Assembly: GCA_964561085.1 (NCBI GenBank)
Contig: CAZLNP010000002.1
Location: 75,440 to 139,439, forward strand
Length of the DNA: 64,000 nt
Direction of reading: 5' to 3'
From: an uncultured Candidatus Saccharibacteria bacterium
GTDB lineage: Bacteria > Patescibacteriota > Doudnabacteria > UBA920
This document shows positions 2,536 through 13,555 of the stretch, in pieces. How positions within the stretch are numbered: position 1 is the stretch's first letter; the number at the start of each line of letters is the position of its first letter. Under the pieces are notes generated by a model. It worked only from the letters and a program-made list of their open reading frames with translations, was not told where the DNA came from and made no database searches. A program made the position numbers and the translations under genes.

Positions 2536-2576
2536 TTGACAAATCTGTATAACTAGTTTATGCTTTGTGTATAAGT
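2536..2576 (+). promoter_or_regulatory. putative sigma70-like promoter for the fic-hsdM operon, with upstream AATTAGAAT repeats
   Basis: TTGACA at 2536-2541, a 17-nt spacer, then TATGCT; an overlapping TGTGTATAAG extended -10 lies at 2567-2576. Three direct/inverted copies of AATTAGAAT(T/A) at 2488-2535 could be an operator. No transcript data. Confidence 0.3.
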
Positions 2577-2587
2577 AATACAGAACT

Positions 2588-3727
2588 ATGTCAAAATCTC
2601 GATGGATCTCAGGTTCCTATAAGAAACAATTCGAATACAAAAGCTTTTCACCCGAAATGGTAAATAAGCCTTTTGTATGGACTGATCCAAGCATAGATTT
2701 GCTGATGGCCGATTCTATGCGTTTTCTTGGTGAGCTAAATGCTTATTCGACACTAGTTCCTGATGTAAACTTTTTTATTCAAATGCATGTTATTAAGGAA
2801 GCCACAGTCTCTAGTCGTATTGAAGGAACTAAAACTAACATTAACGAAGCGTTGCTTTCAGAGGAAGATATTAAACCAGAAAAGCGTGATGACTGGGAAG
2901 AAGTTCAAAACTATATCCAAGCAATTAATTTTTCGATAGATAAGTTAAATAGCTTGCCGATTTCTTTCCGTTTAATTAAAGAAACTCACAAAGTATTACT
3001 TTCGGGTGTTCGTGGGTATAGTAAGCTTCCTGGGGAAATTCGAACAAGTCAAAACTGGATTGGTGGATCAAGTATTACAGATGCAGCATTTGTCCCGCCT
3101 CATCACGAGGATCTACCAGAACTTCTTAGTGATATCGAAAAGTTTTGGCATAATAGAGATTTGCAAATACCTGATTTAATTAAAGCAGCGATTACACACT
3201 ACCAATTTGAAACTATTCATCCATTTTTGGATGGTAATGGTAGAATGGGCCGCTTATTGATAACTTTGCAATTAGTAGACCAGGGAATACTCCAAAAACC
3301 AACGTTGTATGTTTCTGAGTTCTTTGAAAAGCATCGCGCACAGTATTATGATGCACTCTCTCAAGTAAGACAGTCCAATGATATTGAGCATTGGATAAAG
3401 TTCTTTCTAACTGGAATTTCTGAAACAGCCAAGAAAGGTAAAATTACTTTTGAGAAAATTATTGTTCTTCGAAAGAAGTACGAAGATGTTATTGAAAGCA
3501 GGCTGAGTCCAGCACGTCAAAAAACTGCTAAGGAACTCTTGAAGAAGTTATTTTCCAAACCAATGGTAACTGTTCGAGAAATTAAGGAAATGATGAATGT
3601 TTCTACTCAAACAGCGGCTGTGTTAGCAAAAGAATTTGAAGAAGCAGGTTTGATTAAAGAAAAAACTGGGCTTTCAAAAAACCGAATTTTCTTTCTTCAA
3701 GAATATATAGATCTATTTATTAAATAA
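2588..3727 (+). CDS. Fic/DOC family protein (Fic_N + Fic core + C-terminal wHTH)
   Basis: Canonical Fic motif [14 protein letters not shown]; 379 aa. Confidence 0.85.
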
Positions 3728-3733
3728 AAAACT

Positions 3734-5722
3734 ATGGAAAACTTTTCACAAAAAACTTCAATGATTTGGAATATCGCGGACATTCTTCGCGGTGGCTGGA
3801 AGCAACATGAATATCAAGATGTAATCTTGCCTTTTGTTGTTCTTAAACGTCTTGATTCGATTTTAGAACCAACTAAGACAAAAGTTCTTGAACAGCATAA
3901 CCAATGGAAAGGCAAGATTAAAGATGTCGAGCCGATTCTAAAAAAAGCTTCAGGATCAGAGTTTTTTAACGTGTCACCATATGATCTCCATAAATTAACT
4001 GAAGACCCAAATAACATTGCTAAAAACTTTGATCAGTACTTACAAGATTACAGTGAAAATATTCGCGATATCATCGAGAAGTTTGATTTTCATAAACAAC
4101 TAGAACGCCTTGAAGGTGGTAATTTGTTGTATTTAATTATTCAAGAATTAAATAAAGTAGATTTACACCCAGACAAAGTAGATAATCATCAAATGGGTTT
4201 AATTTTTGAAGAATTACTTCGAAAATTTTCGGAAATGTCCAATGAGACTGCGGGGGAGCACTATACTCCACGTGATGTAATTAAAATTATGGTGCAAATC
4301 TTGCTTTCACCAGATGCAAAAGAGCTAAATAAACCACATGTAATCAAAAAGATTTATGACCCCGCAGCCGGGACCGGCGGAATGTTAACAGTTGCCAAAG
4401 ACTACATTTTAGAGAACATTAACCCTAAAGCAGATATCTACTTGTACGGCCAAGAGTTAAACTCAGTTACTTATGCTATGGCAAAGTCAGACCTTCTAAT
4501 TAAAGGTGAAGATCCGAACTTGATTCGTGGTGGTGAAAAAGATCACTCTAAAGCAAGCACTCTTTCTAATGACCAATTTTTTGGTGAAGTATTCGACTAT
4601 GGACTTAGTAACCCACCTTATGGAGTAGATTGGAAAAAAGATAAAGATTTTGTAGAACGAGAGGCCACTCGAGGTTTCGCTAGTCGCTTTGGTGCAGGAA
4701 CTCCAAGAATCTCTGATGGGCAATTATTGTTCTTACAGCACTTAGTTTCTAAAATGAAACCTGTAAGCGAAGGTGGGACACGTTTGGCAATTGTTCACAA
4801 TGGCTCCCCATTATTTACCGGAGATGCTGGAAGTGGTGAAAGCGAAATTCGTCGTTGGCTTCTAGAAAAAGATTTATTGGAAACGATAGTAGCTTTACCA
4901 GACCAATTGTTTTACAACACAGGCATAAATACCTATTTGTGGTTTTTAAGTAATAAAAAGTCAGAGCAACGAGCTGGGAAGGTACAGCTAATTGATGGTC
5001 GTAATATGTTCATGAAAATGCGAAAAAGTTTAGGACATAAACGGCACGAAATTGACGATGAATCAAAAAAGAAAATTTTTGATCTGTACGATAAATTTGA
5101 AGAAAATGAATTCTCAAAAATATTCAAAACTACCGATTTCGCTTATAGACAGATTCAAATTGAACGTCCGTTGAGATTGAACTTCCAAGCATCTAAAGAG
5201 CGAATTGATCTAGTAAAAGAAGAAGCTGCTTTTCTAAAACTTAAACCTACTGAACAAGAAGAAATCATTACTATCTTAGAACAATTCCCAAACAAAGATC
5301 TATTTACTAACCGCGAAGAGTTTGTTAAAGTATTTGATCTTCAAACCAAGGAATTAAAACTTAAAGTTCCCGTAAAGAAAGCTATTTTAAACGCGCTTTC
5401 TGAACGTGATGAAAATGCAGATATTTGTTTAGATAGTAGTGATAAACCAGAAGCAGATAGTGAACTACGAGATTACGAAAATGTACCATGGGGAACAAAA
5501 GTAGAAGAATACTTTGAGAAAGAAGTTAAGCCCTATGTTGCAGATGCATGGATTAACGAAACTGTCCGAGATCACAAAGATAATGAGCTTGGTAAAGTTG
5601 GTTATGAGATTCCCTTTACACGGTATTTCTACAAATATGTTCCACTTCGTAGTTTAGAAGAAATTGAAGCTGATATAGAAACAGTGGAAAATGAATTATT
5701 AGATTTGTTAAAGCAACTATAA
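3734..5722 (+). CDS. hsdM: type I restriction-modification N6-adenine DNA methyltransferase subunit M
   Basis: HsdM N-terminal domain (NIADILRGG), SAM-binding motif I DPAAGTGGML, catalytic motif IV NPPYG. At 662 aa it has a C-terminal extension relative to typical HsdM. Confidence 0.9.
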   Translation: MENFSQKTSMIWNIADILRGGWKQHEYQDVILPFVVLKRLDSILEPTKTKVLEQHNQWKGKIKDVEPILKKASGSEFFNVSPYDLHKLTEDPNNIAKNFDQYLQDYSENIRDIIEKFDFHKQLERLEGGNLLYLIIQELNKVDLHPDKVDNHQMGLIFEELLRKFSEMSNETAGEHYTPRDVIKIMVQILLSPDAKELNKPHVIKKIYDPAAGTGGMLTVAKDYILENINPKADIYLYGQELNSVTYAMAKSDLLIKGEDPNLIRGGEKDHSKASTLSNDQFFGEVFDYGLSNPPYGVDWKKDKDFVEREATRGFASRFGAGTPRISDGQLLFLQHLVSKMKPVSEGGTRLAIVHNGSPLFTGDAGSGESEIRRWLLEKDLLETIVALPDQLFYNTGINTYLWFLSNKKSEQRAGKVQLIDGRNMFMKMRKSLGHKRHEIDDESKKKIFDLYDKFEENEFSKIFKTTDFAYRQIQIERPLRLNFQASKERIDLVKEEAAFLKLKPTEQEEIITILEQFPNKDLFTNREEFVKVFDLQTKELKLKVPVKKAILNALSERDENADICLDSSDKPEADSELRDYENVPWGTKVEEYFEKEVKPYVADAWINETVRDHKDNELGKVGYEIPFTRYFYKYVPLRSLEEIEADIETVENELLDLLKQL

Positions 5723-5723
5723 T

Positions 5724-6923
5724 ATGGCCCAAGATAATAATATAATTTGCCCTAACTGTGGAGCATCAATTTCAATTGATGATGCTTTGACACACCAAAT
5801 TGAAAACAAGCTCAAAAAAGAATACGAGGATAAAGAAAAGTCTTTAAGAGAGTCAATTGAGAAAGAATCTTCAAAGAAGCTAGAAGAAGATAAGGCTGAT
5901 ATGGAGATGAAAATAAAAGCGCAGATTCTGAAAGATGCTGAAGCAAGTAAGATAGCGGCTGATGAAAAAAATAAACTTCTTGAGGAACAACTTGCAGACA
6001 AAGATGCAAAACTAAAAGAAGCGCGTCAAAATGAAGTTGTTCTTATTAAAGAACAGCAAAAACTAAAAGACGACAAAGATGCTTTTGAGTTGGATAAGGA
6101 ACGCCAACTTGCTGAAGATAGAAAACAAATTGAAGAAAATGCTTCAAAAAAAGCCACAGATGCAAAACAATCCGAAATAGACCAACTTAATAAGAAGCTT
6201 TCTGATGCTACAAAAGCAAAAGACGAACTAGCTAGAAAACTAGAACAAGGATCTCAACAAACTCAAGGTGAAGTCCAAGAATTAGCTCTTGAGGAACTAC
6301 TTAAAAATGAGTTTATATTTGATGACATCTCACCTGTAGGCAAAGGTGTTAATGGCGCAGATGTTATTCAGACTGTTAAAACAAAGTCTGGTGTTGAGTG
6401 CGGAAAAATAATATGGGAATCTAAGAAAACTAAAACATGGACTGAGGGGTGGATACAAAAACTCAAAGATGATCAAAGACAAGTAAAAGCAGATCTTGCT
6501 GTCATTATAACGTCTGCAATGCCTCAAGGAACAAGCGGTATCACCCAGAAAGATGGTGTATGGATTTGTGATATCAAATTGGCTTTATCAATAGCAATTC
6601 TACTAAGACACTCACTGGAAACTGTTTCCAGAGAAAAGTCTATGTCTGTAGGGAAAAATGAAAAAGTTGAAATACTTTATGCGTACCTCACTGGTACAGA
6701 ATTTAAGCAAAGAATTGAAGTAATAGTAGAGACATTTTCTAGTATGAAAAAATCTCTTGATAAAGAGAAGCTTTACTTCACAAAAATTTGGGCAGAAAAA
6801 GAAAAGCAAATAGATCGAGTTATCCAAAATACTATAGGTATTTATGGTGATTTGAGCGGAGTTGTTCAATTACAAAAGATTGAGTCACTTGAACTACCTA
6901 GTAGAGAAGATAAAGAAGAATAA
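5724..6923 (+). CDS. DUF2130-like protein: N-terminal Zn-ribbon (CPNCG), long coiled coil, C-terminal putative nuclease-like domain
   Basis: N-terminus is ...ICPNCGASISIDD. About 200 aa follow of charged heptad-rich sequence. The C-terminal domain has a D...ExK-like arrangement (GADVIQTV...IIWESKK). Position between hsdM and hsdS. The family call is from memory. Confidence 0.5.
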   Translation: MAQDNNIICPNCGASISIDDALTHQIENKLKKEYEDKEKSLRESIEKESSKKLEEDKADMEMKIKAQILKDAEASKIAADEKNKLLEEQLADKDAKLKEARQNEVVLIKEQQKLKDDKDAFELDKERQLAEDRKQIEENASKKATDAKQSEIDQLNKKLSDATKAKDELARKLEQGSQQTQGEVQELALEELLKNEFIFDDISPVGKGVNGADVIQTVKTKSGVECGKIIWESKKTKTWTEGWIQKLKDDQRQVKADLAVIITSAMPQGTSGITQKDGVWICDIKLALSIAILLRHSLETVSREKSMSVGKNEKVEILYAYLTGTEFKQRIEVIVETFSSMKKSLDKEKLYFTKIWAEKEKQIDRVIQNTIGIYGDLSGVVQLQKIESLELPSREDKEE

Positions 6924-6924
6924 T

Positions 6925-8235
6925 ATGCAAACACTTAATCTTACAAAAAAATACGAAGTTTACCCTGAATACAAAGATTCAGGTGTTGAGTGGTTAGGGA
7001 TGATTCCAAAAGAATGGAGAGTGGGAAAAGTTAAAGAAGTTTTTAAACTTTTAAAAGAAAGATCCTTCAATAATTCTGAATCTGAAATATTATCGCTCAC
7101 ATTAAATGGTATAAAAACTAGAGATGTTTCAAATAATGAAGGACAAATCGCTGCGAGTTATGAGGGTTATAGAAAAATAATCAAGGGAGATATTGTATTA
7201 AACCCGATGGATCTTGTGAGGGGTTTTGTTGATTCTTCTAAGTATGAAGGCATTATTAGCCCTGCTTATGCTACATTAAGAAAAAAAGATAAAGAGATAA
7301 ATTCACAATATTATAATTATTTTTTTCAAAAACATTACTTTGAAGGCATATTTCACCCTTTTGGTAATGGTGTTTCAGTAGATCATCGTTGGACGCTAAA
7401 AGATGATACGTTAGTTAATTTCCCAGTTCTAACAATTCCATTTGAACAACAAACAAAAATTGCAAAATTCTTAGACCAGAAAACTATTTTGATTGATAAG
7501 ATTATTGAGAAAAAGAAAAAGCAAATTGAGTTAATAAAGGGGGAAAGGAGAGTAATAATAAATAATGCTATTACAAAAGGGCTGGGTAAAAGTGTAGAGA
7601 TGTTTGATAGCGGAGTTGAATGGATCGGAAAGATACCTAAAGGATGGAGTATCGAGAAATTAAAAAATAGAACAACTTTTCTTAATGGTTATTCATTTGA
7701 TAGTGGTGAATATGTAAATGATGGTTTACCAATAATAAGAATATCTGATGTAGGGCAAGAAGTTGATTTTACTAAGGTTAAAAGAGTTCCTTATATTTTG
7801 AGAGCAAAAATTAATAGATTTTTAGTTAAAAAAAATGATTTACTGATTGCTTTAACTGGAGGAACAATAGGTAAGACATCTATTTACGACAAACTTGACG
7901 AAGTCTATTTGAATCAGAGAGTTGGAATCATAAGACCAAACAATGAATTAGACTTAACCTTCTTAAAATTTCAGATTGCTTCAAATGTTTTCAAAAAAAA
8001 TATAGATTTACTTTGTATCGGAGGAGCACAACCTAATATAGGAAAAAATGAAATAGGGAATATTTTATTCCCATTTCCAAGCAAAGACGAACAAAAGGAA
8101 ATATCAAGATATCTTGAAGTGAAAAATAGAGTTTGTGATGAGGCTATAAGTAAGATAGAGTCTACAATAGAAAAATTAAATGAGTACAAAATTTCTCTTA
8201 TTTCCGATGTTATAACAGGAAAGGTAAAAGTATAA
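6925..8235 (+). CDS. hsdS: type I restriction-modification specificity subunit S (two target recognition domains, TRDs)
   Basis: Two TRDs separated by conserved coiled-coil repeats: LIDKIIEKKKKQIELIKGERR centrally and ESTIEKLNEYKISLISDVITGKV at the C-terminus. Very AT-rich. ATG 6925 lies 1 nt after the upstream stop; the ORF-track start 6862 overlaps the previous gene. Confidence 0.85.
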   Translation: MQTLNLTKKYEVYPEYKDSGVEWLGMIPKEWRVGKVKEVFKLLKERSFNNSESEILSLTLNGIKTRDVSNNEGQIAASYEGYRKIIKGDIVLNPMDLVRGFVDSSKYEGIISPAYATLRKKDKEINSQYYNYFFQKHYFEGIFHPFGNGVSVDHRWTLKDDTLVNFPVLTIPFEQQTKIAKFLDQKTILIDKIIEKKKKQIELIKGERRVIINNAITKGLGKSVEMFDSGVEWIGKIPKGWSIEKLKNRTTFLNGYSFDSGEYVNDGLPIIRISDVGQEVDFTKVKRVPYILRAKINRFLVKKNDLLIALTGGTIGKTSIYDKLDEVYLNQRVGIIRPNNELDLTFLKFQIASNVFKKNIDLLCIGGAQPNIGKNEIGNILFPFPSKDEQKEISRYLEVKNRVCDEAISKIESTIEKLNEYKISLISDVITGKVKV

Positions 8236-8237
8236 AC

Positions 8238-8687
8238 ATGTCTCAATTTCAACTTACAACTGAATTAATTAAACTTAGTTTTTCCCCAATATGGGATGAA
8301 GCTAAATTAGAGTGGGAACTAATCGGAGTTGAAAAAGTCTCTGAGTCAGATGCTGAAGAATGTGTCTGCGGCAAGTACCCAATATTGGAGATTTGCACAA
8401 TTAAAAATAAGATAAACAATAATACAGCCAGAGTTGGTAATTCTTGTGTAAAGAAGTTCATTAATGAGTCAGATAAGATATTTCGATCTATTTCTCAAAT
8501 TAAGAAAAGTATTGATAAGTCACTTAACGCAGAAACAATCAGCTTTGCTTTTGAGAAGCATTGGATTACACAAAAGGATAGAAATTTTTACATTGACATA
8601 TTCAGAAAAAGAAATCTTTCAGAAAAACAAAGTAATTGGAAGACTTCAATAAATAAAAAAATTCTGAATAGGATAAAATATGAGTGA
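8238..8687 (+). CDS. hypothetical small protein with a Cys cluster (CxC-x8-C-x~15-C)
   Basis: 149 aa, starts 3 nt after the hsdS stop. Sequence EECVCGKYPILEICT...VGNSCVKKF is a possible Zn-binding site. Lys-rich C-terminus. I recognise no family. Confidence 0.4.
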   Translation: MSQFQLTTELIKLSFSPIWDEAKLEWELIGVEKVSESDAEECVCGKYPILEICTIKNKINNNTARVGNSCVKKFINESDKIFRSISQIKKSIDKSLNAETISFAFEKHWITQKDRNFYIDIFRKRNLSEKQSNWKTSINKKILNRIKYE

Positions 8688-9777
8688 TATAAAAGCAATA
8701 AAACTAAATCAGACATCAAGAAACACATCAGAAATACCTGATGTAATTTTGGTGTCGCCCAATAATCCCAACTTCAAGACTAGGCAGATTCTTCGCTCAA
8801 AAGTAATTAACAACACAAGAACACCTGAGGATACCTTGAGTGTTGATTTGATACACGAAAAAGTCGCTGACGACGGAATTTGGAGCACTTCCTATCAGGA
8901 CTTGAGAAAGTTAAAGGAGGGAGAGTCTATACGAATACAATTAGACTCTGCTCAGACGAGAGAACTCTATAACAATATTGGTGAGCATTACGACGTAAGT
9001 AAGCTTGGTGTTAAGGGTGGAACTAGATATGTTATTTCAAATCAGAAAGATGTTGAGAACATCATCTTTGCTGAAAGTTCTGACAAAAAAGCACTTGCAG
9101 AGAAAGTTTTATCAGAAATAACTGATGCAGAAGCCAAAGACATCGTCGCCTCAGATAACAAATTAATTAAAGGTTTCTTTAATGCATTACCACAGATAAG
9201 AGTTGATATCCTTAAAAGTCTTAAAACACAACTTGAAGGAAATTTAAATAACAACGAAAAGAATCTTCAGAAGTGGATTGATGAGAATAAAAAAGTTCGA
9301 TGTATGATTTTTGGCCTTGAGTTCATTGATTACAAGAGAGAGGTTTCGTTTGGTAACTCCCGTTTTGATATTTTAACCGAACAATCTGGTCTTGATCATG
9401 TAATCATTGAGATGAAATCTCCAAATGTTAAATTGTTTGATGTTGTAAGAAAAACCACTACTAACGGTGAGAAAGATGAGTACGTTATTTCAAAAGATTT
9501 AGGAGAAGCTATACCCCAAGTAATAAAGTACTTTGATGAGTATCAAAGAGAGAATGATGAAACTTTTAAGAAGAATGGAGTATCAAAAAAGAGAGTGTCG
9601 AAAGCGATTATTTTAATAGGAAGAAATGAAAAAGATAATTCAGTTTGGCAAGAAAATTTTAACCGGTTACGACATAGGCTTTCTGGAATAGAAATACTAA
9701 CCTACGACCATTTAGTAGAAAAGATCAGTAACCAAATTGATAATCTGAAGATGCTAAGTAACGAAGAAAATATATGA
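8680..9777 (+). CDS. PD-(D/E)xK-fold nuclease-domain protein, Shedu/DUF4263-like, with an uncharacterised N-terminal domain
   Basis: C-terminal half has a beta-strand ending in D (SRFDIL) followed by DHVIIEMKSP (ExK). Downstream come QVIKYF, then ...KAIILIGRNE...IEILTYDHLV, which resembles the C-terminal end of DUF4263 proteins. Its start overlaps the upstream gene by 8 nt and its stop overlaps the hsdR start by 4 nt. Confidence 0.45.
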   Translation: MSDIKAIKLNQTSRNTSEIPDVILVSPNNPNFKTRQILRSKVINNTRTPEDTLSVDLIHEKVADDGIWSTSYQDLRKLKEGESIRIQLDSAQTRELYNNIGEHYDVSKLGVKGGTRYVISNQKDVENIIFAESSDKKALAEKVLSEITDAEAKDIVASDNKLIKGFFNALPQIRVDILKSLKTQLEGNLNNNEKNLQKWIDENKKVRCMIFGLEFIDYKREVSFGNSRFDILTEQSGLDHVIIEMKSPNVKLFDVVRKTTTNGEKDEYVISKDLGEAIPQVIKYFDEYQRENDETFKKNGVSKKRVSKAIILIGRNEKDNSVWQENFNRLRHRLSGIEILTYDHLVEKISNQIDNLKMLSNEENI

Positions 9778-12719
9778 AAACTAACACACTAGAGTCAGGC
9801 TTCGAGGAATTTATTGAAGAACAACTAAATCAACTGCATAGTTATAGAATTCGTACAGCGAGTGATTACGATAAGAATGTTGCAATGGATGTAGATTTAG
9901 TTGCTGAGTTCATTCAAAAAAGCCAACCCAAAATATGGGAACAATTAGAAGCTCAGTACGGAGAAGATGCCCTTGCTAATACTGTAGAGCGTATCGATAG
10001 AGAAATCACAGAACGTGGTCTTTTAAATGTACTTCGAAGTGGTGTGAGCGACCGAGGGATTCGTTATAGGCTTGCATTCTGGCAACCTCAAAATTATTTA
10101 AATCCACAAACTGTCGAAGAATATGGTACAAATATTCTAAGTATCACTCGTCAGGTGAAATATAGTAATAAGAACGAAAACTGTATTGATATTGTTATAT
10201 TTCTAAATGGTCTACCAATTTTTACTATTGAGTTAAAGAATTTATTTACTGGTCAAGGTGTATCTAATGCGATTCAGCAATATCGTACAGACAGAGACCC
10301 AAAAGAAAAACTTTTGTCTTTTAAACGTTGTCTAACTCACTTTGGTGTTGGTGATCAAGAAGTCCATATGACAACCAAACTTGCGGGTTTAAAAACTCGT
10401 TTCCTTCCTTTTAATAAAGGTAACAACGGTTTAGCGGGAAATCCTGTTGTTGATGGAAAATATAAGACAAGTTACTTTTGGGAAGATGTTTTAGCTAAAG
10501 ACAGTTTAATGGATTTACTAGCTAATTTCGTACAAGATCAAGAAGAAGAAATTGAAGATAGTAAAGGTAAGAAAGTTAAAGAGAAAAAGTTAATTTTTCC
10601 TAGGTATCACCAGATGGATACTGTCAGAAGAATTGTTGCTGATGCAAAAACTTTAGGACCGGGAAAAACTTATTTAATTCAGCATAGTGCTGGTTCTGGT
10701 AAAAGTAATACTATTGCATGGACTGCTCATAGACTTGCGGAGCTACACAATGAACAGAATGAAAGTATTTTTGACTCTGTAATTGTGATTACAGATAGAC
10801 GTATTTTAGATAGGCAACTTTCCGAAACCGTAAATAGTTTTTCTCAGGTTTCTGGCGTTGTTAAACATGTAGAGTCTTCTAAAGAGTTATTAGAAGCTTT
10901 AGAGAAAGGGACTAGAATAATTTCTAGTACTCTACAGAAGTTTCCTGTAATTGTGGATGCTGTAGAAAAAACAGCAGGCAAAAAGTTTGCTGTTATTGTA
11001 GATGAAGCTCATTCTTCTCAATCCGGTGAATCCGCTGCGGACCTGCGCCAAGTTTTAACTTTAGATGATGCGGCTGATGAGGCTTTGCGAGAAGAAAAAG
11101 CTTTTAAAACAACCGAGGATTTAATTGTTGAGAGAATGAAAGCCCGTAAGGTTAAAACCCCAAATATTAGTTTTTTGGCATTTACAGCAACTCCAAAACA
11201 AAAGACGTTAGAGTTATTCGGTACCGAAGATACTTTGACCGGAAAATTTGTGCCGTTTTCGTTGTACTCTATGAAGCAAGCAATAGACGAAGGTTTTATT
11301 CTTGATGTTCTAAAAAACTACACAACTTACGAAACATATTTTGCTTTGTTAAAGCGCATTGAAGATGATCCGGAATATGATAAGAAAAAGGCTCAAAGAC
11401 TTTTAATAGGTTATGTTGAAAAACATGAACATGCCATTGAAAAGAAAATTCAGATTATGGTTGAACATTTTGAGGAAAAGATTCGTAGTACAATTTATGG
11501 GAAAGCTAAGGCTATGGTTGTCACAAAATCACGATTACACGCCGTTCGTTATAAGCTAGCTTTCGATAAATATCTTGCTGAAAAAGGCTATGGTCATAAA
11601 GCTCTTGTTGCGTTCTCCGGAACAGTGAAAGATGATGGTAAAGAATTTACAGAAGCAGGTATGAATCATATACCTGAAAAACAGACACCTGAAGAATATA
11701 AAAAAGATGAATTCAAGTTTTTGATTGTTGCAGAAAAATATCAAACCGGTTTTGATCAACCCTTGCTTTCTGCAATGTATGTTGATAAAAAGTTGAGCGG
11801 TGTTAATGCTGTTCAGACACTGTCGCGCTTAAATAGAACAACTTCTGGAAAAGAAGAGGTTTTTGTTTTGGATTTTGTAAACGACATTGATCAAATTAAA
11901 GAATCATTCCAACCGTATTATACAACAACTATTTTATCCGAAGCGACTGACCCAAATATTCTTCACGATTTAGAAAGAGATGTTTTGAACTTTAAATTAT
12001 TCTCAAACTTTGAAGTTAATGGATTCGTCGATGAATATATGCATGGAGCAACTCCAGACAAGTTAAATGCAATTATAGATGCTGTGGTTGAACGAGCGAA
12101 CGAAGAAAAAAATGAAGAAGAGATTGAAGAGTTTAAAACTTTAATTGCTGATTATTTGCGCAAATACGCTTTTGTAGCGCAGATAGTGACTTTTGACGAT
12201 CCTCAGCTTGAAAAATTGTTTATCTTTTTAAAGTTCTTAATTAAGAAATTGCCGAAGCGTAACGAGCCCTTGCCGTACGAAGTATTGGAAGCAGTGGACA
12301 TGGATACGTACAAAGTACAAAAAACATTAGAGACTTCTGTGGTTCTTGATGACGAAGAAGGAATTATTGAACCTATGGGTGGTGGAGGGACTCATGATCT
12401 TCCAGGAGATGAAAGTGATGCATTATCAAGAATTATTGCAGAAATTAATGAGCGTTTCGGTACTAATTTTTCAAATGAAGACAAAATTATCATCAATACT
12501 CTAAGTCGCAAACTTGTAGAAAATGAAGGCCTAGAAGGTTCGATCAAAAATAATAGCAAGGATTCTGCTAAAATTAAGTTTGACGAGCTATTTCAAGATG
12601 AACTCATAGGAATGTTGAATAATCATTTCGACTTGTACAAAAAACTTGATGAAAACCCTGAAATGAAAAAGTATGTAGGAGAAAGAGTTTTTGAATATGT
12701 GGTTAGACAATTAAAGTAG
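9774..12719 (+). CDS. hsdR: type I restriction enzyme endonuclease/helicase subunit R
   Basis: 981 aa. SF2 motor motifs: motif I HSAGSGKSNTIAW, motif II VIVDEAHSSQSG, helicase-C QTGFDQPLLSAMYVDKKLSG...VQTLSRLNR. The N-terminal nuclease region has ...IDIVIFLNGLPIFTIELK (D...ExK). Confidence 0.9.
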   Translation: MKTNTLESGFEEFIEEQLNQLHSYRIRTASDYDKNVAMDVDLVAEFIQKSQPKIWEQLEAQYGEDALANTVERIDREITERGLLNVLRSGVSDRGIRYRLAFWQPQNYLNPQTVEEYGTNILSITRQVKYSNKNENCIDIVIFLNGLPIFTIELKNLFTGQGVSNAIQQYRTDRDPKEKLLSFKRCLTHFGVGDQEVHMTTKLAGLKTRFLPFNKGNNGLAGNPVVDGKYKTSYFWEDVLAKDSLMDLLANFVQDQEEEIEDSKGKKVKEKKLIFPRYHQMDTVRRIVADAKTLGPGKTYLIQHSAGSGKSNTIAWTAHRLAELHNEQNESIFDSVIVITDRRILDRQLSETVNSFSQVSGVVKHVESSKELLEALEKGTRIISSTLQKFPVIVDAVEKTAGKKFAVIVDEAHSSQSGESAADLRQVLTLDDAADEALREEKAFKTTEDLIVERMKARKVKTPNISFLAFTATPKQKTLELFGTEDTLTGKFVPFSLYSMKQAIDEGFILDVLKNYTTYETYFALLKRIEDDPEYDKKKAQRLLIGYVEKHEHAIEKKIQIMVEHFEEKIRSTIYGKAKAMVVTKSRLHAVRYKLAFDKYLAEKGYGHKALVAFSGTVKDDGKEFTEAGMNHIPEKQTPEEYKKDEFKFLIVAEKYQTGFDQPLLSAMYVDKKLSGVNAVQTLSRLNRTTSGKEEVFVLDFVNDIDQIKESFQPYYTTTILSEATDPNILHDLERDVLNFKLFSNFEVNGFVDEYMHGATPDKLNAIIDAVVERANEEKNEEEIEEFKTLIADYLRKYAFVAQIVTFDDPQLEKLFIFLKFLIKKLPKRNEPLPYEVLEAVDMDTYKVQKTLETSVVLDDEEGIIEPMGGGGTHDLPGDESDALSRIIAEINERFGTNFSNEDKIIINTLSRKLVENEGLEGSIKNNSKDSAKIKFDELFQDELIGMLNNHFDLYKKLDENPEMKKYVGERVFEYVVRQLK

Positions 12720-12724
12720 ATAGT

Positions 12725-13555
12725 ATGACACAAGCCCTTCAAATGTTGGTCCCTAGTGGTAATCCAAATGGAATGAAAATAGTAGAACTTGCTGGATGGT
12801 CTGGTAAATGTTTTGTCGTACCTAGGCAAAGCCTTAAAGAATTGAAAGATAGATCAGAAGTAAACCAACCAGGTATATATTTACTTTTTGGCCCAGATGA
12901 GGAATCTATCAATGACCTTGCTTATATAGGAGAATCTGAAAATTTTTATTCACGAATAGCTACCCATGATTCAGGAAAAGATTTTTGGGATGTTGCTGTA
13001 GTTTTTACAGGTGGATTGAATCGGGCATTCGTAAAATATTTAGAATACAAATCTACTCTCCTTGCTCAGCAAGCTAAGCGAATGGTCATAACTAACAAAG
13101 TTAATCCACAAGAAAATACATTATCTGAATTTGAGAAAGTCACAGCAGATCAATACTTTGAAAATATGCAATTTATTTTAAGTGCTTTTAATTACGAATT
13201 ATTTGAAACTGTTTCCGAAGCAATTGTTAGTGATAAAATGTATTTTTTCAAAGCAGGTGGCGTAGATGCTAAAGCACAATTACTAGATAATGGTAATTTA
13301 AATGTTTTGAAAGGCTCTTTGGGTAGGATTAAGGAAGTAGCTTCATTTGGGGGTTGGTCTTTAGCTGCGCGTAAACGATTTTTGGAAGATGGCACTTTAA
13401 TTAAAAATGATGATACTTCTTATCTTTTTACAAAGGATGTTATCTTTAAAAGCCCATCAGCCGCCGCTGCGACAGTTATAGGACGTTCCGCAAATGGTTG
13501 GACTAAGTGGAAAGATGAATTTGGAAATACTTTGGATGATAATTTACGAAAATAA
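12725..13555 (+). CDS. GIY-YIG nuclease-family protein with a DUF4357-like C-terminal domain
   Basis: GIY-YIG module is PGIYLLFG...LAYIGESENFYSRIATH. The ~120-aa C-terminal domain ends in ...SPSAAAATVIGRSANGWTKWK. The gene begins 6 nt after hsdR. Confidence 0.55.
   Translation: MTQALQMLVPSGNPNGMKIVELAGWSGKCFVVPRQSLKELKDRSEVNQPGIYLLFGPDEESINDLAYIGESENFYSRIATHDSGKDFWDVAVVFTGGLNRAFVKYLEYKSTLLAQQAKRMVITNKVNPQENTLSEFEKVTADQYFENMQFILSAFNYELFETVSEAIVSDKMYFFKAGGVDAKAQLLDNGNLNVLKGSLGRIKEVASFGGWSLAARKRFLEDGTLIKNDDTSYLFTKDVIFKSPSAAAATVIGRSANGWTKWKDEFGNTLDDNLRK

Follow-up and report, generated by a model that had tools for sequence, protein, structure and literature searches.

Shedu is described as a single-component defence system in two published mechanistic studies. 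In the SduA protein of B. cereus B4264 (PDB 8TI8; Doron 2018; Gu et al. 2023) an SduA_N domain is followed by the nuclease domain SduA_C, and the N-terminal domains of Type 1A proteins have an sPC4/Whirly fold and are likely sensors of single-stranded nucleic acid (Gu et al.). KELShedu of E. coli has two genes: a small dsDNA-binding partner is encoded 3 bp from a 361-aa DUF4263 nuclease, and defence needs both. The partner, KELA, is a 110-aa WYL/Sm-type SH3-like beta-barrel.

Many Shedu genes (602 of 5,499) reside inside restriction-modification (R-M) systems, type I included (Gu et al.). Other defence genes have been described in similar places: DarTG2 lies between hsdS and hsdR in EPEC, at a site that was called a potential recombination hotspot, and TgvAB is found inside the type I R-M operon of V. 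cholerae VPI-2. A 'guilt-by-embedding' survey collected genes of this sort from type I R-M operons, and a series of PADLOC candidates goes back to it. That Shedu can reside in type I R-M operons, and that the hsdS-hsdR junction is an embedding hotspot, is therefore already published.

Here we analysed a stretch of 64,000 nt (the window) from an uncultured bacterium, in which two genes, ORF-149 and ORF-365, lie between hsdS and hsdR. The nearest taxon-labelled relatives come from candidate-phyla genomes (Yonathbacteria, Saccharibacteria, Paceibacteria). In our best explanation, to which we give a probability of roughly 55%, the two genes are separable passengers in a known hsdS-hsdR slot: a canonical SduA, and ORF-149 as an independent module.

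A composite operon around the type I genes

All genes of the cluster are on the + strand, in the order SoFic, hsdM, DUF2130, hsdS, ORF-149, SduA (ORF-365), hsdR and GIY-YIG/DUF4357. The features are as follows:

2536..2564, + strand: sigma-70-like promoter match (TTGACA-17-TATGCT, 10/12 consensus), the best in the scan, just 5' of the Fic gene
2588..3727, + strand: SoFic-type Fic protein (Fic_N, Fic and a C-terminal wHTH), opening the cluster; Pfam Fic_N 1.3e-21, Fic 5.2e-19
3734..5722, + strand: hsdM, type I R-M methyltransferase subunit; Pfam HsdM_N and N6_Mtase, 3.4e-59
5724..6923, + strand: DUF2130 protein with an N-terminal Zn-ribbon-like CxxC, between hsdM and hsdS; Pfam DUF2130 2.4e-62
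6925..8235, + strand: hsdS, specificity subunit; Pfam Methylase_S, start read from the sequence
8238..8687, + strand: ORF-149, small basic Cys4 putative Zn-binding protein of 149 aa, from a large unannotated family
8361..8447, + strand: ORF-149 codons C42, C44, C53 and C70 with the invariant G45, P48, E51, N57 and V66-G67-N68 core
8680..9777, + strand: ORF-365, Shedu nuclease SduA of Type 1A architecture, 365 aa; Pfam, PADLOC and PDB 8TI8 matches
8713..9003, + strand: SduA_N domain, aa 12-108; Pfam PF21407, 43.7 bits (cut-off 27)
9250..9714, + strand: SduA_C/DUF4263 PD-(D/E)xK nuclease domain, aa 191-345; Pfam PF14082, 46.5 bits (cut-off 27)
9256-9258, 9367-9369, 9409-9411, 9415-9417 and 9517-9519, + strand: SduA catalytic codons E193, D230, E244, K246 and Q280
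9774..12719, + strand: hsdR, restriction/translocase subunit; Pfam HSDR_N, SWI2_SNF2, ResIII, T1R_D3-like
12725..13555, + strand: GIY-YIG and DUF4357 protein, closing the cluster; Pfam DUF4357 7e-22, weak GIY-YIG match

An earlier note, made from the sequence, had placed the two ORFs between hsdS and hsdR, given the gene order from hsdM to hsdR, put every junction at an overlap or at 6 nt or less, and proposed co-transcription. Positions, order and junctions are all correct. The hsdS stop codon (TAA, 8233-8235) is followed after a 2-nt gap by the ATG of ORF-149 at 8238; ORF-149 and ORF-365 overlap by 8 nt (ATGAGTGA), and ORF-365 and hsdR by 4 nt (ATGA; hsdR start 9774). The remaining gaps measure 6 nt (Fic/hsdM), 1 nt (hsdM/DUF2130), 1 nt (DUF2130/hsdS) and 5 nt (hsdR/DUF4357). 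ORF-149 and ORF-365 are most likely co-transcribed with the R-M operon. The match at 2536-2564 is a suggestive candidate, by its consensus, for a promoter in front of the cluster; shuffled sequences contain more promoter-like sites than the region does, and the scan found no excess of terminator-like sites within the cluster. Rfam and tRNA scans over the whole window found nothing.

As a whole, this operon is a composite defence island. The SoFic gene matches the PADLOC SoFic model (8e-115), and related operons have a Fic gene at the equivalent position; the GIY-YIG/DUF4357 gene directly after hsdR is PADLOC candidate PDC-S14 (3.7e-81). The true start of hsdS is ATG 6925, not TTG 6862, and this gene is only 27% identical to its counterpart in the closest related operon, where the other genes are 63-93% identical. 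The hsdM-hsdS gap is a second embedding slot of the operon, filled in relatives by an NYN protein or a small unannotated ORF, or empty.

The Shedu nuclease

ORF-365 matches 17 PADLOC SduA models, one of which (PDLC00399, 4.3e-25, aa 5-356) is covered end to end. Residues 12-353 align colinearly with residues 12-377 of B. cereus SduA (PDB 8TI8, E=7e-14), so that E193, D230, E244, K246 and Q280 fall on E204, D249, E264, K266 and Q295 of the B. cereus protein. These five catalytic residues are invariant in 28 of 28 homologues and include the D(SRFDIL) and ExK(VIIEMK) motifs (D230 and E244/K246) that the earlier note had singled out. Its assignment of the gene to the DUF4263/Shedu PD-(D/E)xK nucleases, borne out by the PF14082 profile and by PDB 8TI8, was right; the N-terminal ~200 aa, which it had left unrecognised, match Pfam SduA_N, and aa 12-108 are by this match the predicted sensor/regulatory N-terminal domain of Type 1A. 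Comparison with the closest relative gives a dN/dS of 0.029, a sign of purifying selection.

Judged by its sequence, ORF-365 is a full-length canonical Type 1A SduA of the B. cereus kind and not a novel nuclease; the defence system is therefore one already described, and the idea of an undescribed module falls on this side of the pair, its embedding in R-M operons being published as well. From published Shedu work, the protein would form a homotetramer whose PD-(D/E)xK sites are held inactive by the N-terminal domains; upon infection, phage nucleic-acid features would switch it on and DNA would then be cut. The trigger may be single-stranded nucleic acid, as for Type 1A, or free DNA ends, as in E. 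coli SduA. Such a nuclease would act as a second, methylation-independent layer that is co-expressed with the R-M system and needs neither the R-M proteins nor ORF-149. For the suggestion that the R-M complex serves as its sensor, in the manner of PrrC (an ABC-ATPase plus anticodon-nuclease protein that its association with the R-M complex keeps silent), we found nothing supportive: both mechanistic studies describe Shedu as a single component, and neither ORF has ATPase or PrrC similarity in Pfam or PADLOC.

ORF-149 and its relation to SduA and to restriction

ORF-149 encodes a 17.5-kDa protein with exactly four cysteines (C42, C44, C53 and C70, spaced CxC-x8-C-x16-C). In an alignment of 34 homologues (42-87% identity) all four belong to the 24 invariant columns. 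The protein had been called uncharacterised with a conserved Cys cluster, and so it is: profile searches against Pfam (E<=10, HTH families included), NCBIfam, PHROGs and PADLOC gave no match. The AF2 model (pLDDT 91.6) predicts two helices, a three-stranded sheet with the Cys4 site and then four helices, and the C-terminal half has a pI of 10.2. No solved structure matched this predicted fold, and the family profile against PDB sequences returned a chance match only (ribosomal protein S20, E=0.51). Several candidate identities were rejected. An HNH or similar nuclease was dismissed because no histidine is invariant, H46 of most members being K in ORF-149's clade; a resemblance to SWIM or GRF zinc fingers has no profile match in Pfam; KELA has a different fold; and the repeated C-terminal 'LSxKQ...I..K' helix is one residue off the canonical register of an RPA32C-type motif.

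The family is large, with 61 close clusters and 2,284 distant representative clusters from bacteria, phages, conjugative plasmids and protists; 83 plasmids carry a homologue, 74 of them conjugative. No match was obtained by tblastn against the INPHARED phage collection, nine phage homologues gave nothing significant against PHROGs, and a Pfam search of ten longer homologues for domain fusions yielded one sub-threshold Nuc_deoxyrib_tr-like match only. Its small size and missing database annotation are all that speaks for an ORF that arose by chance or for a decaying, non-functional remnant; the number of homologues, the invariant columns, a dN of 0.066 to the closest relative (with dS saturated, no dN/dS ratio is computable, and the values point to purifying selection) and the confident model reduce this probability to a negligible one. 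ORF-149 is thus a real, strongly conserved, structured Cys4 protein and the new part of the locus, from a family without an entry in the curated libraries searched.

It is possible to see ORF-149 as the required small partner of SduA, like KELA for KELB, forming a complex with the nuclease and supplying DNA binding or regulation; a nuclease with a dedicated Zn-binding partner was also what the earlier note had in mind. The pair does recur beyond this locus. ORF-149 always adjoins SduA in the lineage of the window's SduA, and related operons keep the pair in both gene orders. SduA is found within 3 genes of 11 of the 117 ORF-149 clusters, far above chance, and Shedu genes of several very divergent lineages adjoin ORF-149 or lie within 3 genes of it, some outside hsd operons (L013, L025, L033, L037, L086 and L177); at least four other, very divergent Shedu lineages directly adjoin it (L025, L033, L037 and L086). 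KELShedu offers a precedent for such a partner. The 8-nt overlap of the two genes might also be counted in favour, but it is uninformative on partnership because all genes of this compact operon overlap or nearly touch.

Against this stands a double dissociation. In four hsdM-hsdS-SduA-hsdR operons the slot is filled by an SduA of 53-54% identity, equal in domains and length, and ORF-149 is absent, whereas ORF-149 at 58-75% identity precedes hsdR at two loci without SduA. Elsewhere its neighbour is a reverse transcriptase, an AAA_15 ATPase (two loci), a UvrD-like helicase or an unknown gene, and members of one 90%-identity ORF-149 cluster have a reverse transcriptase at one locus (L017) and SduA at another (L135). 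The two proteins do not co-diverge: where an ORF-149 of 61% identity adjoins an SduA, that SduA scores 26 bits against the profile of the window's type. In addition, published work treats Shedu of the B. cereus type as a defence made up of one protein, the WYL/SH3-like fold of KELA is not that of ORF-149, and Gu et al. reported no such partner among 5,499 neighbourhoods. The dedicated-partner model therefore fails, and ORF-149 is not an obligate Shedu partner. A two-component Shedu is improbable here, although the adjacency to divergent Shedu genes (11 of 117 clusters) keeps a specific link alive.

Type I R-M genes, like several divergent Shedu lineages, are found next to ORF-149 more often than expected by chance. 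Ten of the 15 clusters in the close clade (at least 58% identity to ORF-149) lie in hsd operons, in at least six arrangements (S-149-R, S-149-X-R, S-X-149-R, M-149-X-R, S-SduA-149-R and M-149-S-R), always on the hsdR strand and always 5' of hsdR. The hsd backbones form at least three identity groups, with HsdR about 70%, 40% and 23-26% identical to the window's, and where two operons share no more than 23-28% identity in HsdR and HsdM, their ORF-149 proteins still share 61-65%. ORF-149 is mobile between unrelated hsd backbones.

Its constant place upstream of hsdR looks more like that of a dedicated R-M accessory than of a random passenger. ORF-149 could then act on the restriction system itself, either by delaying or limiting the expression or activity of hsdR, following the controller logic of C proteins, or as a restriction-alleviation or modification-enhancing factor of the Ral/Lar kind. 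With such a factor a mobile R-M operon could become established on entering a new host, and the copies on plasmids and in phage early/replication regions would be anti-restriction tools. Beyond the close clade this association fades: only 6 of 102 clusters below 58% identity are near hsd genes, and for about 100 of all 117 both hsd and SduA are missing from the nearest 3 genes. Many copies stand alone amid housekeeping genes, and one copy, 77% identical, is flanked by genes for an S24-peptidase protein and a KAP NTPase, hsd genes being absent. ORF-149 moreover has no HTH and no Pfam similarity, and the aligned hsdS/ORF-149 junctions contain no conserved repeats or operator-like elements. We regard a role as an R-M accessory as rather unlikely.

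Defence and mobile-element families are frequent among the neighbours (OLD, KAP NTPase, AbiEii, Abi_C, FRG and DUF3800; further TIR_2, ThiF/Multi_ubiq, pP_pnuc_1, IS110 and integrases). This heterogeneous company, the lone copies and the logic of guilt by embedding would fit a stand-alone, single-gene defence or anti-defence protein that shares with hsd and Shedu no more than a niche. A protein of this size, in which no enzymatic domain is recognisable and the Cys4 site is the only set of invariant residues of a catalytic type, would nevertheless be an unlikely sole effector; it is also missing from the PADLOC candidates that come from embedding in type I R-M operons, and its place beside primases in phage replication modules is untypical of defence cargo. 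We consider this alternative doubtful.

Other observations hint, indirectly, at binding to DNA or to replication forks. On phage contigs the family adjoins a T7-type primase-helicase, Prim-Pol and a protein with a BT4734-like N-terminal domain, which we take to be a primase, as well as RNR, and it sits between Mu B and Gam. In one phage member the ORF-149 domain is fused to a T7-primase zinc-binding domain that is itself duplicated. A protist member has an extra C-terminal motif, presumably RPA32C-binding, that matches the TIPIN C-terminal region and the SMARCAL1 peptide of PDB 4MQV.

Returning to ORF-149 as an independent module, we propose that C42, C44, C53 and C70 would together coordinate one Zn ahead of the basic helical half, and that the protein would bind DNA, probably single-stranded or fork DNA. 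In these operons it might serve as an accessory of general use, either detecting foreign DNA as it replicates or enters, or tuning the nuclease genes downstream (hsdR, SduA or other cargo), and not as a Shedu subunit. This assignment, made from gene context, charge and the two fusion proteins with neither a fold nor a sequence match, is tentative. A broader and less probable reading makes ORF-149 the founder of a widespread Cys4 family that recognises replication-associated (single-stranded or fork) DNA, as a sensor/adaptor shared by nuclease defences. Phages would use the family beside their primases, and bacteria would have recruited it against replicating foreign DNA, to license type I HsdR, several Shedu lineages, OLD/AAA_15, and UvrD-like and pPIWI-associated nucleases.

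Comparison with known systems

The Shedu half of the locus is one more case of a published pattern and adds little. The value lies in ORF-149, a conserved zinc-site family with thousands of members that is absent from the curated libraries searched, with a confidently predicted fold that lacks a solved relative and a non-random placement just 5' of hsdR and beside nuclease-type defence genes. Should it prove to be a modulator of restriction or of Shedu, it would add a new regulatory or sensing layer to the most common bacterial immune systems, and could account for the control of composite R-M islands or for their establishment in new hosts. If it is a replication-fork protein, the phage and protist relatives would make it a candidate for a new DNA-replication accessory module; were the shared-sensor reading true, it would be an accessory common to otherwise unrelated immune systems.

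ORF-365 has the domain order of B. cereus SduA, nearly its length (365 versus 382 aa) and all residues of the catalytic motif. It differs in its low identity to the solved protein (55 bits only) and in being embedded in an hsd operon, with ORF-149 directly before it. As in KELShedu, a small gene stands directly upstream of, and co-directional with, a gene for a DUF4263 nuclease of ~360 aa. Unlike KELA, however, ORF-149 is predicted to be a Cys4 alpha/beta plus helical protein, and unlike the KELShedu genes, ORF-149 and SduA are apart as often as together, with no consistent co-occurrence.

ORF-149 also resembles the C proteins of type II R-M systems and Ral/Lar in being small and encoded just 5' of a restriction gene. 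Lar is a small Zn-ribbon protein. C proteins have an Xre-type HTH and C-box operators; ORF-149 has no HTH, and its upstream junctions have no operator-like repeat. Most members of its family, unlike C proteins and Ral/Lar, are not near R-M genes, and it is not similar to known restriction-alleviation families, because it has no Pfam similarity at all.

In placement the locus resembles the cargo embedded in R-M operons (PrrC, DarTG2, TgvAB and the PADLOC candidates), with which it shares the hsdS-hsdR slot, the common strand and cargo that varies across related operons. Each of the two genes lies between hsd genes, and on their strand, in independent R-M systems: the hsd backbones around SduA are of two unrelated kinds, with HsdR 26% identical, and those around ORF-149 of three or more. 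ORF-149 differs from the PADLOC embedded candidates in matching no PADLOC model. It differs from variable cargo in being the constant element, while the cargo beside it changes.

The gene cluster around ORF-149 and ORF-365

A compact, co-directional gene cluster occupies 2588-13555 of the + strand, from a Fic gene to a GIY-YIG/DUF4357 gene:

2588-3727, +, SoFic-type Fic protein (PADLOC SoFic, 8e-115)
3734-5722, +, hsdM
5724-6923, +, DUF2130 protein (N-terminal CxxC zinc-ribbon-like motif, long coiled-coil-like K/E-rich region, DUF2130 domain)
6925-8235, +, hsdS
8238-8687, +, ORF-149
8680-9777, +, ORF-365
9774-12719, +, hsdR
12725-13555, +, GIY-YIG/DUF4357 protein (PADLOC PDC-S14, 3.7e-81)

Re-reading the junctions from the sequence upheld the gene order and tight spacing described in the earlier note: hsdS and ORF-149 are 2 nt apart, the reading frames of ORF-149 and ORF-365 share 8 nt (ATGAGTGA), those of ORF-365 and hsdR share 4 nt (ATGA), and the remaining intergenic gaps measure 1-6 nt. 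The top promoter-like site lies ahead of the Fic gene (2536-2564); terminator-like sites showed no excess over shuffled sequence. G+C is about 0.29-0.40 in the cluster, and the whole 2.5-13.6 kb block is lower in G+C than the left flank (0.41-0.47 over 500-2500). Directly upstream lies a PIF1/RecD-like helicase gene (1052-2482) with a G+C of 0.42-0.47, above that of the island.

L007, the closest related operon, has the same block in other genomic surroundings, about 1.5 kb upstream of a large serine recombinase, suggesting a mobile island. HsdS of the two loci shares just 27% identity, against 63-93% for the flanking genes, consistent with specificity-subunit swapping. The hsdM-hsdS interval forms a second embedding slot; here it holds the DUF2130 gene, whose product shares 87% identity with its L007 counterpart, against only 71% for hsdM and hsdR. 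Related operons have an NYN-domain protein (L011) or a small unannotated ORF (L134) there, or leave the slot empty (L017). On each side of the hsd operon lies one further defence-type gene, SoFic in front and GIY-YIG/DUF4357 behind.

ORF-365 as a Shedu nuclease

The N-terminal ~200 aa of ORF-365 had been thought to match nothing, which proved wrong: residues 12-108 match SduA_N at 43.7 bits and residues 191-345 match SduA_C/DUF4263 at 46.5 bits (Pfam, curated cut-off 27 for each). The PADLOC SduA model covers residues 5 to 356 (E=4e-25), and in the PDB only B. cereus SduA (8TI8) matches, colinear over residues 12-353 (E=7e-14). After correction for the +2 offset of the deposited 8TI8 chain, E193, D230, E244, K246 and Q280 correspond to the published catalytic residues E204, D249, E264, K266 and Q295, and all five are invariant in 28 of 28 aligned homologues. 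Judged from its sequence, ORF-365 is a predicted Shedu nuclease of canonical type, with the architecture that Gu et al. call Type 1A. These authors proposed that the sPC4/Whirly-like N-terminal domains of Type 1A Shedu detect single-stranded nucleic acid and govern tetramer-to-octamer activation; a second Shedu study showed that E. coli SduA is a tetramer that nicks DNA, with free DNA ends recognised by its N-terminal clamp.

The ORF-149 family and its neighbours

ORF-149 had no match in Pfam (even at E<=10), NCBIfam, PHROGs or PADLOC, and all 61 clusters of close homologues (42-99% identity) are unnamed or "hypothetical protein". An alignment of 34 close homologues has 24 invariant columns, including the only four cysteines of ORF-149 (C42, C44, C53 and C70) and the core G45-P48-E51-N57-V66G67N68. 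Compared with its closest relative, dN is 0.066 with dS saturated. The AF2 model is confident (pLDDT 91.6, pTM 0.81), with two helices, a three-stranded sheet bearing the Cys4 site, then four helices; the protein as a whole is basic (pI 9.1), very strongly so in its C-terminal half (pI 10.2), while the N-terminus is acidic. Among 1.84 billion representatives, a profile search detected 2,284 proteins at E<=1e-3, of which 386 reach E<=1e-30. Relatives were found in 145 species genomes (Pseudomonadota, Acidobacteriota, Cyanobacteria, Planctomycetota, Bacteroidota and candidate phyla), 428 metagenome stretches, 31 viral contigs and 83 plasmids, 74 of them conjugative, and multi-repeat versions are found in protist transcriptomes. 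ORF-149 is a real, unannotated gene, and represents a newly noticed, large, uncharacterised Cys4 family.

Is ORF-149 the partner of SduA? Related operons keep the two genes together in either order. The arrangement hsdS-149-SduA-hsdR recurs in L007 and L134, and with one extra gene before hsdR in L011 and L135, while the L147 contig ends after hsdS-149-SduA; the reversed hsdS-SduA-149-hsdR is found in a Yonathbacteria genome (L013/L139), where the L013 SduA scores 26 bits against the window-type profile. Distantly related Shedu genes adjoin, or lie within three genes of, ORF-149 homologues in this and other loci (for example L025, Saccharibacteria; L033, Halomonas, with an N-terminal nuclease domain; L037, Telmatobacter; L086, Marinomonas; L177). 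Among 117 clusters with at least two called neighbours (of 123 at 90% identity), a Shedu gene lies within three genes in 11 and directly adjacent in 8; a generous background of one Shedu gene per 1,000-gene genome gives at most 0.6% per locus, or about 0.7 expected, so the association is not due to chance. However, SduA homologues of 53-54% identity, alike in domains and in length, occur in hsdM-hsdS-SduA-hsdR operons without ORF-149 (L128-L131), and ORF-149 at 58-75% identity directly precedes hsdR without SduA (L020, L093). ORF-149 also accompanies a reverse transcriptase (L017), AAA_15 ATPases (L019, L145), a UvrD/PcrA-like helicase (L141) or unknown proteins. Within one 90%-identity ORF-149 cluster the neighbour is the reverse transcriptase in L017 and SduA in L135. 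Moreover, ORF-149 retains 61-65% identity across operons in which HsdR and HsdM share 23-28% and SduA can hardly be recognised, and thus does not co-diverge with either neighbour. KELA, the partner in the published two-gene Shedu, is a WYL/SH3-like barrel, a fold different from that of ORF-149. We conclude that ORF-149 and SduA are separable modules in a shared niche; a facultative functional link is possible. In L146, ORF-149 and an unknown 332-aa gene fill the hsdS-hsdR slot and a Shedu gene (12428-13435) follows hsdR, another sign of independent movement.

The main rival is that ORF-149 is an accessory of type I restriction-modification (R-M), since hsd context is the strongest contextual signal for this copy: 10 of 15 clusters in the close clade (>=58% identity) lie in hsd operons, always upstream of hsdR and in the same direction. 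At least six arrangements exist; one of them, hsdM-149-hsdS-hsdR, comes from three viral-collection contigs with ORF-149 at 40-45% identity. Yet a 77%-identical copy sits between a LexA/UmuD-type S24 domain protein and a KAP NTPase, only 6 of 102 clusters below 58% identity are near hsd genes, and lone copies lie between gyrB and glyA, beside ftsZ/dnaJ or adjoining the integrase of a mobilisable element. The other neighbours mix defence and mobile-element families (OLD, AbiEii, Abi_C, FRG, DUF3800, TIR_2, ThiF/Multi_ubiq, IS110, integrases) with some housekeeping genes. The association of ORF-149 with type I R-M, Shedu and other nuclease/NTPase defence genes is significant but facultative.

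pP_pnuc_1, a predicted pPIWI-associated nuclease, recurs near ORF-149 in Halomonas/Marinobacter-type islands. In six such loci (L033, L047, L199, L200, L203, L208) a 293-aa protein, confirmed by Pfam as pP_pnuc_1 in L033 only, is encoded directly upstream; A3, which includes the L047 copy, gave a second member with a pP_pnuc_1 match. Downstream are a 285-aa DUF3800 protein (L033) or 266- and 259-aa proteins (the other five), and L033 has Shedu and Peptidase_U49 (Lit-like) genes just upstream of the arrangement. Large MOBH conjugative plasmids (L132, E. coli pECTOK-001_1; L133, Providencia stuartii pLarge) carry homologues among "hypothetical" genes, that of L133 being a 297-aa protein near umuDC, hok and a DNA polymerase III theta gene.

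Possible role of ORF-149 and comparison with known systems

Bona fide phage contigs carry the family in early or replication modules, where its neighbours are a T7-type primase-helicase on one side and DNA polymerase A on the other, a preceding class II RNR, a following Prim-Pol, a preceding BT4734-like N-terminal-domain protein (a putative primase), or Mu-like B (TniB-type) on one side and Gam on the other. Proteins of the T7-like group have an extra T7 primase zinc-binding domain N-terminal to the ORF-149 domain; it matches 1NUI residues 16-45, keeps all four Cys and duplicates the one in the primase-helicase encoded upstream. This duplicated domain (CSKCGSSD...CYSC) is seen at 5842-6450 of L099, where the order is primase-helicase, ORF-149-family gene, DNA polymerase A, and in L115 and L117; in the related L100-L103 the extension differs, being a CxxC-rich segment. 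Two protist transcripts (P0062, P0066) encode a single Cys4 domain, after which the C-terminal "W[ED]xxFY...LSxKQ...I..K" helical module is repeated 3-4 times. For the C-terminal motif of P0062, short and with weak E-values, the best PDB matches are TIPIN residues 193-226 and the SMARCAL1 peptide of 4MQV, presumably both RPA32C-binding sequences. On Providencia plasmids the homologue lies near umuDC and the Pol III theta gene. From these phage contexts, fusions, protist motif and Providencia neighbours, and from the basic C-terminal half, we infer, tentatively (probability about 0.3), that ORF-149 may be a DNA- or fork-associated zinc module. Such a role would be compatible with an accessory to defences acting on replicating foreign DNA.

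What the earlier note observed is confirmed, and its interpretation holds in part. ORF-365 is a Type 1A Shedu of the ordinary sort at a kind of site already in the literature. As regards Shedu, the finding adds one case to a published pattern, since embedding in R-M systems is already described: Gu et al. counted 602 of 5,499 Shedu genes inside R-M systems, type I among them; in EPEC, DarTG2 lies between hsdS and hsdR, a site termed a potential recombination hotspot in that paper; TgvAB is embedded in a V. cholerae type I operon; and Payne et al. built a discovery method on genes embedded in R-M type I, BREX, DISARM and Hma. SoFic and PDC-S14 of the cluster described here are likewise already in PADLOC.
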